Shown: piece by piece, positions 121-18,026 of the stretch | Layout: the number at the start of each line of letters is the position of its first letter | Position numbering within the stretch: position 1 is the stretch's first letter | Source of the DNA: Candidatus Omnitrophota bacterium | Lineage (GTDB): Bacteria; Omnitrophota; Gorgyraeia; Aquiviventales; Aquiviventaceae | Reading direction: 5' to 3' | DNA length: 48,402 nt | Assembly (NCBI GenBank): GCA_016180575.1 | Contig: JACPAY010000007.1 | Span: 77,642 to 126,043 of the forward strand | Made by a program: the position numbers and the translations under genes | The notes under the pieces: model-generated | The model's database searches: none | Seen by the model: only the letters and a program-made list of their open reading frames with translations | What the model was told of the DNA's origin: nothing

Positions 121-1206
121 ATGGAAACCCGCCACGCCTACACGACCCACAACAGCGCCGTCGACGCGCAGATCGCGGCCCTCGTCAACTCCTTCGGCGA
201 CGACCTGGACCGCCGCCTGCTGGCCGAGATGATGGTCTCGGTCTACCGCCTGGGCGCCGACAGCTCCACCCATGGCGACCTCAAGCTCCTGAATTCCGCC
301 CTGAAGGAGCTGCGCTATGCCTTCAAGATCTTCCGCCCCTACCGCGCGATCCGCAAGGTCGCCATGTTCGGGTCCTCCCGGGTGTCCCGCCACCACCCGG
401 CCTACGCGATGGCGAGGGCGTTCGGCCGCCTGATGGCCCAGGCCGACTGGACGGTGATCACCGGCGCCGCCAGCGGCATCATGCGGGCGGGGCATGAAGG
501 CGCCGGGCGCGTGAAGAGCTTCGGGCTGAACATCCGGCTGCCGTTCGAGCAGGAGGCCAACCCGGTCATCGCCGGCGACACGAAGCTGATCAACTGCAAG
601 TACTTCTTCACCCGGAAGCTGCTGTTCATCAAGGAATCGCACGCCACCGCCCTCTTCCCGGGCGGGTTCGGGACGCTCGACGAGGGATTCGAGTCGCTCA
701 CCCTCGTCCAGACCGGGAAATCCGACCCGCGCCCCATCGTCTTCGTGGACCTGCCCCACGGCAGGTTCTGGGCGCCGCTCATCCGGTTCTTCGAAGAGCA
801 GCTCGTCGCGGGCGGCATGATCGCGCCCTCCGATCCCGCCGTCTACCGGGTCGTGCACTCCGCCGAGGAGGCCGCCGAGGCGATCCTGCGCTTCTACTCG
901 GTGTACCACTCGCTGCGGTACGTCGGCGACCGGCTGGTCCTGCGCCTGAACAGGCGCCTGCCGGATGAGGCGGTCGCGCGCCTTTCGCGCGAGTTCCGCG
1001 ACATCCTGCGCGCCGATGGGATCGAGCAGGGGCACGCCCTGCCGCAGGAAGCCGATGAGCCGCAGCTGTCGCACCTCGCCCGGCTCATCCTGCGGTTCAA
1101 CCGGAAGGACTTCGGCCGGCTCCTCCAGTTCATCCACCGGCTCAACGACCTCGGAACAACAAGCGAAGTCACAAGTCACACGTCACAAGTCACACGTCCG
1201 CGCTAG
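121..1206 (+). CDS. LOG family (Rossmann-fold) nucleotide phosphoribohydrolase, long form
   Basis: FGSSR, ITGAASGIM, YFFTRK, PGGFGTLDE motifs; start ATG121 (GTG103 alternative); last ~13 aa come from a heptamer repeat. Confidence 0.9.
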   Translation: METRHAYTTHNSAVDAQIAALVNSFGDDLDRRLLAEMMVSVYRLGADSSTHGDLKLLNSALKELRYAFKIFRPYRAIRKVAMFGSSRVSRHHPAYAMARAFGRLMAQADWTVITGAASGIMRAGHEGAGRVKSFGLNIRLPFEQEANPVIAGDTKLINCKYFFTRKLLFIKESHATALFPGGFGTLDEGFESLTLVQTGKSDPRPIVFVDLPHGRFWAPLIRFFEEQLVAGGMIAPSDPAVYRVVHSAEEAAEAILRFYSVYHSLRYVGDRLVLRLNRRLPDEAVARLSREFRDILRADGIEQGHALPQEADEPQLSHLARLILRFNRKDFGRLLQFIHRLNDLGTTSEVTSHTSQVTRPR

Positions 1207-1300
1207 AGCCCCGTAGAACAACTTCCCGCTTTCCAAGAACCGTTTAACCCTTTAGACTGGTACCCGTAACGTGTGACCTGTGACGTGTCACCTGTGACGC
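1166..1300. repeat. Inverted heptamer arrays (A[AC]GTCAC)x4.7 / (GTGACNT)x5 at the LOG-dnaE junction
   Basis: aagtcac aagtcac acgtcac aagtcac acgtc (1166-1198); gtaacgt gtgacct gtgacgt gtcacct gtgacgc (1266-1300). Confidence 0.9.
1230..1258 (+). promoter_or_regulatory. Putative sigma70 promoter for dnaE
   Basis: TTTCCA-17 nt-TAGACT in an AT-richer spacer between the two heptamer arms. Confidence 0.5.
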
Positions 1301-6582: not shown

Positions 6583-6681
6583 GGCCGCGGGTGACGCGGA
6601 GCCGGGGACCCCGCCGCCTGCCCGCAGGCCGACGAGGCCGAGGACAGCCGGCGGGGTGGCGGCGCGGCAGGACCCGCGGCC
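6583..6681. repeat. ~100-nt rod-like palindromic element, copy 1 (hisS-aspS intergenic)
   Basis: 10-bp terminal IR ggccgcgggt/acccgcggcc; inner accccgccg/cggcggggt; near-identical to 8661-8769 except the apical hairpin. Confidence 0.9.
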
Positions 6682-8660: not shown

Positions 8661-8769
8661 GGCCGCGGGTGACGCGGAGCCGGGGCCCCCGCCGCCTGCC
8701 CGCAGTCCCGCCGATGGCGGGACGAGGACAGCCGGCGGGGTGGCGGCGCGGCAGGACCGTGGTCTCCCG
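8661..8769. repeat. ~100-nt rod-like palindromic element, copy 2 (5' end of phoH)
   Basis: Matches 6583-6674 apart from one substitution and the apical hairpin (gtcccgcc-gat-ggcgggac). Confidence 0.9.
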
Positions 8770-9613
8770 CGGCGATGAGATCAAGGTCAGCGGCGAGGAG
8801 GCGGCCGTGGGCCAGGCGATGCGGCTCTTCGATGACCTCCTGATCGTCATCCGCTCAGGCGCGCCCCTGCGCAAGGACGACGTCGACTACGCCCTGCGCG
8901 CGCTGCGGGATCCCCGCCTGATCCAGCTGCGCCAGGTCTACGAGGAGCGGATCGAGGTGCCCTCCAAGCGGCGGTTCGTCATCCCGCGCACGCCGGGGCA
9001 GAAGGCCTACGTGGACGCGATGCGCTCGCATGACATCGTCTTCGCCATCGGGCCTGCGGGGACAGGCAAGAGCTTCCTTGCGATGGCCATGGCGGTCGAG
9101 AATCTCACAAAGGGCGAGGTCTCGCGGATCATCCTCACGCGGCCCGCGGTGGAAGCGGGTGAGCGGCTCGGCTACCTGCCGGGCGCGCTGGAGGAGAAGG
9201 TCCACCCCTACCTGCGGCCGCTCTACGACGCGCTCTACGAGATGATGGAGATCGACATGGTCCAGCGCTACCTCGACCGCGGCATCATCGAGGTGGCCCC
9301 GCTCGCGTTCATGCGCGGCCGCACGCTCAACGACGCCTTCATCGTCCTGGATGAGGCGCAGAACACGACGAGCGAGCAGATGAAGATGTTCCTCACCCGC
9401 CTCGGGTTCGATTCCAAGGCGGTCATCACCGGGGACATCACCCAGATCGACCTGCCGGCGGAGAAGCCCTCCGGGCTCATCCAGGTGCAGAAGCTGCTCG
9501 CATCGGTCCCGGGCATCAAGTTCGCCCTCTTCAGCGGCCAGGACGTCGTGCGGCACGAGCTGGTCCAGGCGATCATCCGCGCGTACGAGCAGGGCAACCA
9601 TCAGCCGGGCTGA
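8669..9613 (+). CDS. phoH: PhoH-like ATPase (YbeZ), start uncertain
   Basis: [49 protein letters not shown]; GTG8669 has a GGGGAGG RBS 8 nt upstream. Confidence 0.93.
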
Positions 9614-10134
9614 TGGGGATCATGACGGTGCAGATCACCAACGCCCAGCGCGAGGCCCCGGTCAGCACCGCCCGCATGACGCGCCTGGCGCGCCGCGCGG
9701 TCCGGCGGCTGGGCATGCGCGAGCCGGGACGCCTCGCCATCACGTTCATCGGGCAACACCGCCTGCGCGCCCTCAACCGCCGCTTCCTGCGCCGGGACCT
9801 GCCCACGGACGTGCTGAGCTTTCGGTATGACGATGAGCCCATCGTCGGCGACATCCTGATCGCCCCCGCCCAGGCGCGCGCCTACGCCAGGCGCCACGGG
9901 ATTCCGTACGCGGAGGAGCTGGCCCGCTATCTTGTCCACGGCCTGCTCCACTGGCTCGGCCATCTCGACTCGACGCCGCAGCAACGGCGGAACATGCGAC
10001 AGCGGGAAGACGATCTCTTGGCCGCTTGCGGCGTCCTGACCTCTCGAGACAGGAGACAAGGGACGGGGGACAAGCGAACTCGAAAGAACCCCCTGTCTCC
10101 TGTCTCCCGTCTCCTGTCTCAAGAGTGCGACTAA
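9613..10134 (+). CDS. ybeY: rRNA maturation endoribonuclease YbeY
   Basis: LNRRFL, PTDVLSF, GDILI, HGLLHWLGH; repeat-derived C-terminal extension. Confidence 0.95.
   Translation: MGIMTVQITNAQREAPVSTARMTRLARRAVRRLGMREPGRLAITFIGQHRLRALNRRFLRRDLPTDVLSFRYDDEPIVGDILIAPAQARAYARRHGIPYAEELARYLVHGLLHWLGHLDSTPQQRRNMRQREDDLLAACGVLTSRDRRQGTGDKRTRKNPLSPVSRLLSQECD
10041..10125. repeat. Inverted heptamer arrays (RRGRGAC)n / (CYGTCTC)n at the ybeY-recO junction
   Basis: gagac aggagac aagggac gggggac ... ctgtctc ctgtctc ccgtctc ctgtctc aagag. Confidence 0.9.
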
Positions 10135-10868
10135 TGGGGCTCCATACGGCGGAGGCGATTGTGCTGCGGCGCTATCCCTTCCGGGAGACCAGCGTCACGC
10201 TGACGTGCCTGACGGACCGCTTCGGCAAGCTCAAGGGGCTCGTGAAGGGGCTGCGCGCGCAGCCCCCCCGCCATCGCAGCGCGATGGAGCCGATGACGGT
10301 CAACCGCATCGTCTTCTACGACACGCGCGCGAGCCAGCTCCACCTCATCAGCCAGTGCGAGCTGCTCGAGCCGCTCAGCGGGCTCCAGGGCGACCTCGAC
10401 GTGATGCGGCTGGCGGCGCTGTGCGTGGACCTGGTGGACACGGTCGTGCCGCTCGAGGAGCCCCAGCCGGCGCTCTACGCCCTGCTCAAGCAGACGCTGG
10501 CGCATCTGGCCCTCGGCGGGACGGACCGCGCCGCCCTGCGGCTCCATTTCATCATCCGGCTCCTGCGCCTGGCCGGGTTCCACCCCCAGCTCGATGAGTG
10601 CACCGGCTGCGGCCAGCGGGTCCATGCCGGCGCCCGCTGGAGCGCGCGGCAGGGCGGGATCCTGTGCCCGCGCTGCCTGCCGGAGGATCCGCACGCGGAC
10701 CATGCGCCGCCCGAGCTGCTGGAGGCGCTGGACGCGCTCGCGGACGCGGACACGCCGCCGGCGCTTGCGCCGGCGGCGATCCCGGCGCTCACCGAGCGGC
10801 TGGACGATTTCCTGCGCTGGCGCCTCGACCGCCCGCTCAAGACGCTGGCAGGAATGCCAGAACGCTAA
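10134..10868 (+). CDS. recO: DNA repair protein RecO
   Basis: EAIVLRRYPFRETS, GKLKGLVKG, Zn finger CTGC...CPRC; TAATG overlap with ybeY. Confidence 0.95.
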   Translation: MGLHTAEAIVLRRYPFRETSVTLTCLTDRFGKLKGLVKGLRAQPPRHRSAMEPMTVNRIVFYDTRASQLHLISQCELLEPLSGLQGDLDVMRLAALCVDLVDTVVPLEEPQPALYALLKQTLAHLALGGTDRAALRLHFIIRLLRLAGFHPQLDECTGCGQRVHAGARWSARQGGILCPRCLPEDPHADHAPPELLEALDALADADTPPALAPAAIPALTERLDDFLRWRLDRPLKTLAGMPER

Positions 10869-12124
10869 TGGTTCGGGTATGGTTCGTTGGGATCGCCGTG
10901 GTCGCCGTCCTTGCCGTGTTGATCGTGTTCGGCTTGTCGTCTCGTGTGAAGCCGACGGTCAAGCCCTTCGTCTCACCGCGCCAATTACTGCCCTACGTCT
11001 CTCACGCGCAGGCGCGGGAGGCCATTTGCGCCACCATCACCACACCCCCATTTGGGGAGATCTGCCGGTCGGAATTTGATCACGTGGCGAAAGATGACAC
11101 GGAACGCATCGACCGGCTGTTCCTGATGCTCACTGCGGCCAAAGCTGACAAGACCCTTTCGGACTATGAGCGGTGGCTGCTTGCTCAGTTGGTCGTGGCG
11201 ACATTGCCCGTCAGTGAGAGCGGTAACAGCCCCCAAGCGTTCCGTGCTCGTCGGCCTTCACTCTTAGCCGATATCGGCAACGTCTTCGGTACGCCTCTCT
11301 TTGCCCAGGAGATCAAAACGGGCATGAGTCGGGCAGAATATCACGACCACTTGCTGCGCGATTTGAAGGCCGTCAAGGAGCACTGCCCGCCAGCCGGCGA
11401 CGATGCGTGGGTCTTCACGGCCATGTGCTCCGAATACTCATGGGTGAATGGTCTGCGACAACCCCTCTACTCCAAAGCGTACGGCGAGCGGGGCGGTTGG
11501 TGCGTCGACACCGATGAGGGGGAATCGGCTGCGCGCAGACGGTATCATGTCCGGTCTGTGACCAACACAAAAATGAGAAGCGAGAACAATTTTTCAGATG
11601 CCGCCCCTGGCGTGTCCAATCACATCTTGTGCCACTTCTCCTGCGGTTCATTTGCATGCCCCGAGAGGGGAGACACGACGGCCGCCGACCGCGTGAGCCA
11701 GGACTACACCGAGCGCGGGTATCAAGGTCCCGATTTCCTTCAACAGCTTCTCACGGCGGCAAGCACGACGGCGAGAGCTGAGCATGAGACCCCCCGCATC
11801 GAAATGGGTTCCGGCGGTGCGGCTGACCGCCAACTAAGCGATTGTGAAGAAAAATTTGACCGTGCCAGAGATCGATGTTTTACCATTCCCCCGGTGGCCG
11901 GGGAACATACGTTCAACGCCTGCTCGCGACAGGCGAAGGCGGATTACCTGGCGTGTCTGGAACACGAGGACCCTGTCCAGCACGCCACCATCAAGTGCGA
12001 TGACGTCTATCACACCATCAGCGCCAAATGCATCCCGATTCCTAGTGAACGGTATGACACCTGCCTCAGCGATGCCAAAGCGCAACATCAGGCGTGTCTC
12101 CAGGCCTCAACACGAAGGCCATAA
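10868..12124 (+). CDS. Hypothetical membrane-anchored Cys-rich protein, lower GC
   Basis: TAATG coupling to recO; N-terminal TM helix; four CX10C motifs at the C-terminus; atypical codon usage. Confidence 0.75.
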
Positions 12125-12125
12125 G

Positions 12126-13010
12126 ATGCCTGGTTCTCGCACGTTCCAACACATCGTCCGCGCGCTCGACGCCTTCTGGGAGCAGGAGGGCTGCGTCATC
12201 GTCCAGCCCTACGACATCGAGATGGGCGCCGGGACGTTCCATCCGGCCACCTTCTTCGGGGCGCTGGGCCCGGCCCCGGTGCGCGCCGCCTACGTGCAGC
12301 CCTCGCGCCGGCCCACCGACGGCCGCTATGGCAAGAACCCGCTGCGGATGCAGCGCTACTACCAGTACCAGGTGCTCCTGAAGCCCTCACCGGAGGATGT
12401 CCAAAGCCGCTACCTCAAAAGCCTCCGGGCCGTGGGCCTGGCGCTCGATGACCACGACCTCCGGTTCGTCCAGGACGACTGGGAATCGCCCACCCTGGGC
12501 GCGTGGGGCCTGGGCTGGGAGGTGTGGCTGGACAGCCTCGAGGTGACCCAGTTCACCTACTTCCAGCAGGTGGGCGGCGTGGACCTGGACCCCATCTCCT
12601 GCGAGATCACCTACGGCCTTGAGCGCATCGCCATGTTCGTGCAGGGGGCCGCCGACGTCTACAAGCTCGCCTACGGACCGCGCACCACCTACGGCGACCT
12701 CCACCTCGCCAACGAGCGGGAAAGCTCCGCGTACAACTTCGAGCACGCGGACGTCGCGCTGCACCAGCAGCTCTTCGCCAGCTGCGAGCAGGACGCGACG
12801 CGGCTGCTGAACGCGAAGCTGCTCCTGCCGGCCTACGAGCAGCTCCTCAAGTGCAGCCACACCTTCAACCTGCTCGATGCGCGCGGGGCGGTCAGCCAGT
12901 CCGACCGCCCGCGGTTCATCCTCCGCATCCGGGGCATCGCCAAACGATGCGCGGAGCTGTATCTTGAGCGGCAAGCGCCCGAGACAAGAGACAGGGGACA
13001 GGGGACATGA
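12126..13010 (+). CDS. glyQ: Glycine--tRNA ligase alpha subunit
   Basis: [47 protein letters not shown]. Confidence 0.99.
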
Positions 13011-13055
13011 AACGGCGAACACCTGTCTCCCGTCTCCTGTCTCCTGTCTCAAGAG
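12981..13055. repeat. Inverted heptamer arrays spanning the glyQ stop / glyS start
   Basis: gagacaa gagacag gggacag gggacAT GA ... ctgtctc ccgtctc ctgtctc ctgtctc aagag. Confidence 0.9.
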
Positions 13056-15168
13056 CGACGGATCTGCTCCTCGAGATCGGGACCGAGGAGTTGCCGGCCG
13101 CCTACCTGCCGGGCCTGATCGAGCAGCTGGGCCGCGAGGCCGCAACACTCCTGCAGGCGCACCATCTGCCGTATGAGCGCGCGGAGAGCGCCGGCACCCC
13201 CCGGCGCCTCGTCCTCATCGTGCGCGGGCTCTCCGCGACGCAGCGCAAGCCGGCCGAAGAGGTCCGGGGCCCCTCGAAACAGGCCGCCTACGACAAGGAC
13301 GGCAAGCCGACCGCGGCGCTCCTCGGGTTCCTGCGCGCGCAAGGCGGCAGCCTCGCCCACACGAAGGTCGTCTCCTCCGAGCGGGGCGATTACGTCTATC
13401 TCGTGAAGGAGCCGAGGGCGACGCCCGCCTCGGCGGTCCTGCCGGAGCTCCTGCCGCAGCTCATCGGCCGGCTGCGAGCGCCGAAGACGATGCGCTGGGA
13501 CGCGTCCGGCGTGCGCTTCGCGCGGCCCATCCGGTGGCTGTTGGCGCTCTACGGGACGTCCGCCCTCCGGTGCTCGCTCGGGACGCTCCAAAGCGCCTCG
13601 GCGACGCGGGTCGGCGGGCCGCTGCGCCCCCGGGCCGTCCGGGTCCGGTCGCTCGAGGGGTACCTGCGGACGCTGAAGCAGGCTGGGGTCGCGCTCGACC
13701 AGGCGCAGCGCCGTGCCTGGATCGAGCAGGCGGTCGGGCGGATCGCCGGGCAGGCCCGCGGGGCCGCCGCCCCCGAGATGGTCAGCCACGGACTCCTGGA
13801 TGAGGTCACGCACCTCGTCGAGCGGCCGACACCGCTCGCGGGGCGGTTCGACCGCACCTACCTCTCGCTGCCGCGCGAAGTGCTCCTGGCGAGCATGGCG
13901 AAATACCAGCGGGTGTTCGCGGTCGAGGCCGGGGGAACCCTCCTGCCGCAGTTCATCGCGATCCTGGAAGGCCCGCCCCGCCGCCCGGCGGAGGTCCGCA
14001 AGGTGATGGAGCGCATCCTCAACGCGCGCCTGGCGGACAGCCTGCTCTTCTGGATCGAGGACCACCAGCGCCTCCCGCTCCAGCGGATGGCGGAAGCGCT
14101 CTCCGGCGTCACGTTCCATGAGCGGCTGGGCTCCATGGCCGAGAAGACGGTCCGGCTCCGGGCGCTGGCCGAGCCGCTCGCCGAGGCCTGGCAGCTCACC
14201 GAGGAGGAGCGCGCGCACCTGCGGCGGGCGTGCCAGCTGGCCAAAGCGGACCTCGTCAGCACGATGGTGAAGGAGTTCCCGACGCTCCAGGGGGTCATCG
14301 GGAAGCACTATGCCCGCGATTCCGAGGAGCCCGCGCCGGTGGCGGAGGCGATCGAGGAGCAGTACCTGCCGGCGGGGAACCAGCGCCCCCGGACGCTGCT
14401 CGGCGGCGCCCTGGCGCTCCTCGACAAGTACGACACGCTCAGCAGCTACTTCGGCCTCGGGATCATGCCGACCGGCGACCAGGACCCCTTCGGCCTCCGG
14501 CGGGCGGCGCAGGGGATCGTCGAGATCGCCTGGACCGTCCACCGGCCGCTCCCGCTCGGGGCGCTCTTCCGCACCCGGACCTCGATGGAGCCGTTCCGCA
14601 GCGTCCAGCCCCGGGCGGCCGCGACCGCCGGCAACCAGGTCCAACGGTATTTGCTGGACCGGCTGGACACGTTCGAGTGGCCAACGCCCGCGCCCGCGCC
14701 GGACACCATCGATGCGGTGCTCGCCGGGCCCTGCGATGACCTCGTGGACGTCATGGACCGCATCGTCACCCTCCAGGGGCTGCACAATCATCCGGCCCTG
14801 CGCAAGGCCGCCAAGGTTATCGAGCGCACGCGCAATATCCTGCGGGGCGCTGCGCTGCGGCAGCCCCAGGTCGACCCCGCCCGCCTGGCCGAAGCCCCGG
14901 AGCGGCAGCTCTGGGAGCTCTATCGCGCCCACGAGCCCCGCCTGGCCGGGCTCGCCCAGGACAAGGCGTACGCCGAGGCCACGACGCTGTTCGGCGAGGT
15001 GTTCTTCGAGCCGCTGCACCGGTTCTTCGACCAGGTGATGGTCAATGTCCCGGACGAAGCGCTCCAGCAGAACCGGCTCGCCTTGATGCAGGCGATTCAG
15101 GCGTTGTATACTGACCGCATCGCCGACCTCTCGAAACTCACGTTACTCCACCACGAGGAGCCAGCCGC

Positions 15169-15172
<4 letters not shown>
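13007..15172 (+). CDS. glyS: Glycine--tRNA ligase beta subunit
   Basis: [48 protein letters not shown]; ATGA overlap with glyQ. Confidence 0.98.
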
Positions 15173-17952
<2,780 letters not shown>

Positions 17953-17953
17953 T

Positions 17954-18026
17954 CCTGAGACATGGGACATGAGACAGGTGTGACGTTCACTTGTCCCCTG
18001 TCTCCCGTCCCCTGTCTCCTGTCTCC
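17954..18026. repeat. Inverted heptamer arrays at the ppdK-sigma junction
   Basis: tgagaca tgggaca tgagaca ... tgtcccc tgtctcc cgtcccc tgtctcc tgtctcc. Confidence 0.9.

Follow-up and report, generated by a model that had tools for sequence, protein, structure and literature searches.

Heptamer-armed hairpins at gene junctions and inside conserved genes of an Omnitrophota bacterium are probably empty forms of a small cassette

The genome of a small groundwater bacterium of the Omnitrophota (G000; assembly of 1.31 Mb, 68.9% GC, completeness 84.6%, contamination 0.27%) contains dispersed inverted arrays of heptamers, three of which lie in the stretch of 48,402 nt analysed here (the window; C25:77642-126043), at the junctions ybeY/recO, glyQ/glyS and ppdK/sigma-factor gene. 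We consider it reasonably probable that these three copies belong to a family of small selfish DNA cassettes with heptamer arms and lack the cargo, a PF05635 gene, that the full form encloses. They are discrete elements and probably empty cassettes, and their occurrence is not specific for gene junctions. In the scheme that we propose, the full form would consist of inverted arms of three to five GRGACAN heptamers around a gene of about 120 codons that encodes a four-helix-bundle protein of family PF05635 ('23S rRNA intervening-sequence protein'). Copies would be gained, lost and replaced quickly, and would persist where they do little harm. One such niche may be the gene junctions of operons, where the element would supply a stop codon (through its ends, TGAGAC...GTCTCA, or a TGA or TAA in the loop) and, by an ATG within an ATGTCTC unit or within the loop, a start codon; the other may be the variable loops of proteins, where the hairpin would be read through without stops. 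Movement would take place at the DNA level, by way of a hairpin or cruciform, and not through an RNA function. The PF05635 protein might act in trans as a specificity factor, a role suggested with reserve because several array-bearing genomes lack the gene.

The three copies share the general form (GRGACAN)3-4, a loop of 13-19 nt and (NYGTCYC)4-5. Arrays of this unit are called family A, with GRGACAN forming the R arm and NYGTCYC the Y arm, and no strand is assigned to the copies. Copy 1 (10046..10120) consists of an R arm of four units (10046-10073; GAGACAG, GAGACAA, GGGACGG and GGGACAA), a loop (10074-10092) and a Y arm of four CYGTCTC units (10093-10120). Its boundaries were set from the empty site in G001, the sole other genome of the same genus that was searched, which is syntenic with G000 and has flanks about 80-97% identical. 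Copy 2 (12981..13050) has an R arm of four units (12981-13008), a 14-nt loop (13009-13022) and a Y arm of four units (13023-13050), and copy 3 (17957..18025) an R arm of three units (17957-17977), a 13-nt loop (17978-17990) and a Y arm of five units (17991-18025). A preliminary description of the window had placed copies at these same three junctions, and its boundaries needed only slight refinement. It had also pointed out that copies 1 and 2 both end in CTGTCTCAAGAG and have GCGAAC in their loops, and that copy 3 carries CCTGAGACA and GTTCAC, all of which we found again. Its suggestion that copy 3 is the same element flipped was not borne out: the similarity of the loops in reverse orientation was equalled or beaten by 168 of 2000 shuffles for copies 2 and 3, and by 779 of 2000 for copies 1 and 3.

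Copy 1 lies in frame at the 3' end of ybeY, 14 nt upstream of the TAATG at which the stop codon overlaps the start of recO. The ybeY open reading frame (ORF; 9613..10134, + strand, 173 aa) includes the entire copy, and the YbeY Pfam profile stops at residue 137 of 173, which indicates that the tail of the gene reads through the element. At copy 2 the overlapping ATGA (start of glyS and stop of glyQ) spans the boundary between R arm and loop. The reading frames make the R arm the tail of GlyQ and the Y arm the head of GlyS, residues 1-19 of the glyS ORF (13007..15172, + strand, 721 aa) being derived from the loop and Y arm. The GlyQ profile stops at residue 377 of 388 and the GlyS profile begins at residue 20; together with the YbeY envelope, these limits confirm the earlier assignment of the arms to the YbeY tail, the GlyQ tail and the GlyS head. 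Copy 3 is intergenic, 4 nt past the ppdK stop codon and 4 nt ahead of the ATG of the sigma-factor gene.

The arrays are not expected by chance. The pattern (CYGTCYC)x3 with at most two mismatches matched the window 13 times, compared with a mean of 0.03 in 100 shuffled sequences, none of which reached 13. Each copy can form a long hairpin on either strand (minimum free energy -37.6 to -56.3 kcal/mol, z -4.7 to -5.9, none of 200 shuffles as good); the z-values were -5.3 (plus strand) and -5.9 (minus strand) for copy 1, about -5.6 for copy 2, and -5.2 and -4.7 for copy 3. Comparison of copies 1-3 with Rfam gave only sub-threshold generic hairpins, including, for copies 1 and 2, look-alikes of microRNA precursors that scored 22-30 bits where the gathering thresholds are 60-100.

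A motif search through G000 identified 26 family-A loci, mostly paired, at positions that include gene junctions and ORF interiors. Twenty-one are two-armed, with the R arm always before the Y arm, and five are single arms; some copies have no loop and are joined at the self-complementary ACATGT. Of 24 other genomes from this taxonomic family, 14 had the family-A pattern; of 16 from the rest of the order and class, none had it. At the copy 1 site the sequence CCTCTC is directly followed by AAGCGC in G001, and by 75 nt and then AAGAGT in G000, an insertion of exactly 25 codons, at which no target duplication could be separated from the element's own end. The uniform polarity of the 21 pairs and this clean 75-nt difference uphold the preliminary description, which saw in the repeat a discrete element rather than a simple microsatellite. 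The same description had the element targeted to stop/start junctions. This does not hold in that form, since whole copies were also found inside the genes of valyl-tRNA synthetase (ValRS; three copies), PurL and RluD, in the rplN/rplX spacer and between convergent genes. Certain junctions are indeed used repeatedly, as described below, but targeting of such sites is indistinguishable from survival at harmless ones.

The ValRS gene contains three whole family-A copies (69, 69 and 53 nt) in frame, across which the tRNA-synt_1 and anticodon-domain profiles run. When the sequence is aligned with that of the solved ValRS 1GAX, the first and third inserts face pure gaps, and the second falls in a variable stretch. 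With an in-frame doublet of a REPIN repeat at a fourth site (C25:53770-53812; see below) the enzyme has four separate palindromic inserts. PurL has an in-frame 54-nt family-A copy and a single arm of another family, a KdsB-type cytidylyltransferase has one single arm in frame within its Pfam domain, and elements of heptamer families other than A were found in PyrD (63 nt, splitting the DHO_dh match into two stretches) and within the dimerisation domain of aspartate-semialdehyde dehydrogenase (Asd). NadC (C25:55196-55413) has an R arm and, 160 nt from it, a Y arm, both inside QRPTase_C and with native coding sequence between them; these could be two remnants or an arm pair around a native segment. 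At bamA/skp (C13:68778-68889; locus L164, 16779-16890) the 56-nt loop between the arms encodes the start codon and the lipoprotein-type signal peptide of Skp (OmpH), and in G001 the arms are identical and the loop has diverged yet still encodes a signal peptide. None of the six frames of family A contains a stop codon, and a whole GRGACAN/NYGTCYC hairpin can therefore be read as a low-complexity insert of 18-25 residues. Judging from these open frames, the copies in ORFs are presumably translated.

RluD differs from the other cases. Its 47-nt family-A copy (3+4 units; C24:9786-9832, locus L003, 587-633) breaks the frame, the S4 and PseudoU_synth_2 domains being encoded in different frames. Loop-less in-frame copies elsewhere are 54 nt long (4+4 units), and the RluD copy is thus one 7-nt unit shorter. 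A second, single arm in the same gene (GACATGT x4.4, C24:9474-9504) is in frame. The 47-nt form is bridged unchanged by the contig of sequencing run X4, and the contigs of runs X1-X3 break inside the element; no 7-nt indel was listed in the per-run contigs, which cannot reveal minority variants. The gene could be a pseudogene or a switch that depends on the number of units.

At least four other inverted heptamer families were recognized in G000 by TRF and clustering: family B (GCGTAAT/ATTACGC, 13 elements), family C (GTCACAN/NTGTGAC) and further types with the units TCAGCCN and GCTCAGG. The family-B unit contains TAA, so any ORF entering such an element ends there, and the family is confined to intergenic spacers: all 13 copies are in short spacers 4-25 nt from genes, some of them supplying the stop codon. 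Stop avoidance was also considered as the cause of the imperfect complementarity of arms. Restored complementarity created an in-frame stop in 10 of 42 stems, a figure obtained with no control and including some short stems that are probably spurious, and little weight was given to it.

To follow the fate of the sites, G000 and G001 were compared at 16 family-A sites (15 identified by flank anchors, ValRS site 3 by protein alignment). In G001 eight were empty (ybeY, the three ValRS sites, PurL, rplN/rplX, C13:88299 and C17:42438), three had GCGGAAT-type arrays (glyQ/glyS and two pilin-gene sites), three had unrelated sequence and only two had family A. At the tail of yggS a complete 73-nt element in G001 corresponds to a Y arm alone in G000, which identifies single arms as deletion remnants. 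Eight family-B sites were comparable: two had arrays in G001, two were empty and four had other sequence, often another GC-rich palindrome. Four further sites (C21:31534, C12:36775, C23:72738 and C10:41572) had no comparable sequence in G001, and one (C17:43576) was left out because the orthologous stretch (locus L188) reads as N. At both sites with arrays (C25:6919 and C28:42372) the two arms are built of GCGTAAT in G000 and of GCGGAAT in G001. The family-B arrays of G000 contain 53 CGTAAT and nine CGGAAT or TGGAAT, and no tandems of the other genome's unit were found in G000 or G001. GCGGAAT is free of stops, and in G001 it also occurs at ORF-adjacent sites where G000 has family A. The G001 stretch orthologous to the family-B site C10:4024 (locus L252) is a perfect 32-nt palindrome, GTGTCAGGCCCCATGGTACCATGGGGCCTGACAC, another kind of hairpin at a reused spacer.

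Reuse of sites by different units extends to other relatives. In the ValRS orthologues of 19 relatives, stems of at least 20 nt made of other units were present in 8/19 at site 1 and in 8/19 at site 2; the units in these loops include GAGTTCG, GGGGCTC, GGGGCAG/CACGCCC, GGCTCGA, AGTGGTC and GTTCAAG. In one relative (G013), sites 1 and 2 are occupied by nearly identical 75-nt elements, loop included, which argues for recent copying between the sites. At glyQ/glyS, 13 of the 17 loci with a GlyS identity of 54% or more had period-7 arrays (at least eight units), as against none of 60 more distant loci. The ybeY/recO junction is empty in G001, G015 and G020 and has other units in G017 and G024; ppdK/sigma has arrays of other units in G015 and G020, and in G001 a copy of a 100-nt GC-rich repeat. 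The latter repeat is itself represented in the window (6583-6681 and 8661-8758) by two copies of about 100 nt with the terminal inverted repeats GCCGCGGGT...ACCCGCGGC; there are 72 copies in G000, 67 of them at least 80 nt long, and no match was found in Rfam. Elsewhere a REPIN site of G000 is occupied by a heptamer array in G001, and at the site of a G000 family-D array (C17:31638) G001 has a 738-nt insert with a ParE-like toxin and a Phd/YefM-like antitoxin gene (locus L183, 887-1434). The load of such sequences is considerable: the 1.3 Mb of G000 hold about 50 heptamer hairpins, 18 REPINs and the 72 copies of the 100-nt repeat, and turnover is so fast that at most sites congeners are not alike.

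The preliminary description had raised the possibility that the copies are the empty form of a cassette, and this idea gained support from related sequences. Metagenomes were scanned for GRGACRN x3, a gap of 372-402 nt (a chosen size) and NYGTCYC x3. The scan gave 13 loci; in six of them arms of the same polarity enclose a PF05635 gene, which scored 112-143 bits (cut-off 33.8), three of the six with weak bAvd-like matches as well. A filled form with identical unit and polarity therefore exists. PF05635 was also found in 15 of 25 relatives, and 14 such genes at 12 loci in sister genera were inspected: heptamer arrays were present on both sides of eight, on one side of two, and were not detected at four. 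In one relative (G022) two PF05635 cassettes occupy consecutive junctions of a kinase/regulator operon, the tail of the kinase being read from a GAGACAN arm, and on its contig C78 a single GAGACAN arm adjoins a cassette with different arms. A coordinate comparison revealed no GRGACAN-flanked PF05635 gene in the relatives G015, G017, G020 and G022. With loops of 13-19 nt, and with no PF05635 match in G000 or G001, the copies of the window can be assigned to the empty form only. At the three window junctions, comparison of genomes yielded empty sites, short arrays and other repeats, but no state filled with PF05635.

Several observations weigh against the cassette interpretation. PF05635 had no match in G000 (84.6% complete), and no cargo gene lies between arms anywhere in that genome. 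The family was likewise not found in the array-bearing genomes G001, G010, G016 (96% complete), G018 (90%) and G023; a trans-acting four-helix-bundle protein therefore cannot explain the persistence of the arrays, and present-day mobility in G000 is conjectural. At none of the sites compared did a filled state in one genome face an empty one in another, and descent of the short loops from a PF05635 gene is hypothetical. Of the other seven gap-bearing metagenome loci, one (L262) has GGGACAA-type arms around a small Cys-rich CPXCG (PF14255) gene, and six have no Pfam match between the arms. Neither a target-site duplication nor a consistent target motif was detected at the ybeY site or the other sites empty in G001. 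The arrangements at bamA/skp and NadC are not easy to derive from insertion of one hairpin unit, and the 47-nt RluD copy breaks the frame. Reuse of sites may reflect selection and not targeting, as REPINs, the 100-nt repeat and the toxin-antitoxin pair use such sites too. Finally, the GCGTAAT/GCGGAAT switch at two family-B sites is more readily explained by conversion or rewriting in place than by simple insertion. As to mobilizing enzymes, no RVT_1 or OrfB_IS605 match was obtained in G000.

The unit switch leads to the strongest of the competing explanations, which we nevertheless hold to be unlikely: that arms are rewritten or homogenized in place at long-lived sites, either because 28-bp arms undergo ectopic gene conversion or because repeats are added from a template where the palindrome breaks. 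The units of many loci would then change together, and the site, at times with its loop, would stay fixed. Apart from the switch at the two orthologous sites and the minority of the other unit in G000, this would agree with the glyQ/glyS junction, which is occupied in 13 of 17 close relatives yet with at least eight units, and where the loops of G000 and G001 share AACGGYG..CAC despite differing arms. It would also agree with arms that flank native coding segments at skp and in nadC, and with loop-less copies joined at ACATGT. However, the one-base switch is seen at two sites only, two of the eight comparable family-B sites being empty and four unrelated in sequence; the ybeY copy is an insertion of a whole element with no trace of an earlier array; no reverse transcriptase was found in G000; and the loop similarity is short and without statistics.

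Heptamer-armed cassettes might be a widespread sort of mobile element, so far not described, that moves or is rewritten with no need of a transposase. Its long-lived docking sites would be gene junctions and loops of proteins, where the 28-bp arms are exchanged or re-templated in such a way that every copy in the genome tracks a trans-acting, pentameric, PF05635/Avd-like reader of the heptamer. We offer this as speculation and think it rather improbable. If true, the units would be genus-specific 'dialects' (such as GCGTAAT and GCGGAAT in the two congeners), and new translated disordered loops would continually be written into essential proteins of small-genome bacteria.

Selection by the host for RNA hairpins that process, stabilize or translationally couple operon mRNAs, in the manner of REP/BIME sequences and RNase III sites, appears slightly less plausible than rewriting in place. 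The stems are strong, and many copies lie exactly at stop/start junctions, where they supply stop or start codons. There are precedents as well: heptamer-built stems of an intervening sequence (IVS) are cut by RNase III in Coxiella (PMC4990558), and the heptamer repeats of Rehm et al. lie within 50 bp of ORFs and are mostly transcribed (PMC4692102). Tests for selection on RNA were negative, however. There was no preference for G.U pairs on the sense strand (54 sense G.U against 83 A.C among the arm mismatches), and the sense fold was the better one in only 10 of 21 elements. Copies inside ORFs showed no weaker folding than the rest (p = 0.28), although cutting of the transcript in essential genes would do damage. 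Half of the 16 family-A sites are empty in a congener with intact operons, and the same sites accept unrelated repeats. These results favour a selfish element acting at the DNA level, the surviving copies of which are filtered by the harm they do.

Locally born microsatellites, arising by slippage on heptamers followed by local inversion or duplication, would require no element at all. Heptamers are over-represented among bacterial simple sequence repeats, for which slippage has been proposed (PMC4692102, PMC4679880), and the RluD copy is one unit off the 54-nt in-frame form. Such an origin is nonetheless very improbable, given that pairs of a single polarity, with about four units per arm, make up 21 of the 26 loci, that these 26 loci are unrelated yet have the unit in common, as do 14 of 24 related genomes, that the ybeY copy is a clean 75-nt indel, that the ValRS copies of G013 are nearly identical and that the arms enclose PF05635 elsewhere. 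An assembly or adapter artefact comes to mind because GAGACAG equals the final bases of a common library adapter; it is excluded by the lack of any match to the adapter motif, by the distance of every element from the contig ends (at least 2593 nt) and by the recurrence of the elements in independent genomes, and one of them is bridged unchanged by a per-run contig. G-quadruplex motifs deserve as little credence: GGGACAG runs do contain G-tracts, a preference for four units is what Rehm et al. argued from (PMC4692102), and some other family-A arms, (GGGACAG)x4, would have the required four or more tracts of at least three G, but no R arm of copies 1-3 contains more than two such tracts, and families B and C have none.

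One more element of the window belongs to family C and was recognized by TRF, clustering and context. It spans 1166..1298 (C25:78807-78939; no strand assigned) between two co-oriented genes and consists of (AAGTCAC/ACGTCAC)x4, a loop of about 73 nt and (GTGTGAC/CTGTGAC)x4.

For annotation, the elements matter in that they lengthen or truncate ORFs, supply starts and stops and break frames through a single 7-nt unit. The lineage offers a natural system for studying cassette movement, the function of PF05635 and the tolerance of essential enzymes for new surface loops. A search of the openly accessible literature retrieved nothing about PF05635 genes enclosed by heptamer arms elsewhere than in rRNA, nor about whole inverted heptamer arrays translated inside housekeeping genes. 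The combination of several heptamer families per genome, read-through in essential enzymes, fixed sites whose units switch between genera and even between congeners, and arms around PF05635 outside rRNA was not found in this search. Its individual components do have counterparts in known systems.

Like miniature inverted-repeat transposable elements, family A consists of short, non-coding, multi-copy inverted repeats (26 loci, with 8 of 16 sites empty in the congener); unlike the case with them, no target-site duplication and no cognate transposase were found in G000. The REPIN-RAYT system is present in G000 but separate. It comprises 18 doublets (36 sites) of AAGTACCSGGTACTT spaced exactly 28 nt, including the in-frame doublet in ValRS, and the sole Y1/RAYT-like gene of the genome (C24:16879-17208; L151) is flanked by AAGTACCSGGTACTT doublets on both sides, whereas heptamer arrays do not flank it. 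Y1_Tnp was not found in the array-rich genomes G015, G020 and G018.

Dispersed heptamer repeats are known from several bacteria, the cyanobacterial STRR sequences among them. Rehm et al. (2015) described GGGAATC in Xanthomonas and GGGGAYT in Nostoc; Xanthomonas has 70-75 convergent inverted pairs per genome, and 83% of the repeats are common to Xcc and Xac (PMC4692102). The elements of G000 resemble these in the 7-nt unit, the preference for four units, the location between co-oriented ORFs within 50 bp and the overlap with stop codons. For the TAACTGA repeats of Beggiatoaceae it has already been argued that stop codons limit residence in ORFs (PMC4679880). In these papers the repeats were interpreted as G-quadruplex or translational signals. 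The present case differs in that several unrelated units coexist, most of them unable to form a G-quadruplex, and turnover between congeners is high; it differs further in that whole inverted pairs are read through in essential enzymes and that arms are tied to PF05635.

In frame within genes, the nearest parallel is the RPE of Rickettsia, palindromic repeats inserted in frame in genes (Ogata et al. 2000, summarised in PMC10969869). Both are palindromic selfish repeats that lie in frame in unrelated housekeeping genes and are apparently tolerated as extra peptide, here in ValRS (three times), PurL, PyrD, Asd and YbeY as whole elements and in NadC (twice) and KdsB as single arms. RPE are about 150 bp long, against 47-113 nt here, with a conserved peptide, are not built of heptamers and belong to another lineage, the comparison being one of size and build and not of sequence. 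We know of no cargo-bearing form of RPE.

With respect to cargo, the closest system is the IVS in the 23S rRNA of Coxiella burnetii, in which tandem GACAGAT x2-3 forms part of a 28-bp stem by the S23p/PF05635 gene, RNase III cuts in this stem and the copy number varies between strains (PMC4990558). Terminal inverted repeats that pair into a stem of some 28 bp, heptamers in the arms and the PF05635 cargo (in 6 of 13 metagenome loci) are common to both, whereas the copies described here lie outside rRNA, are devoid of a gene and occupy junctions of protein genes and ORFs. The cassette interpretation would join three topics that have been treated separately: rRNA intervening sequences with PF05635, the excess of dispersed heptamers, and in-frame palindromic repeats.

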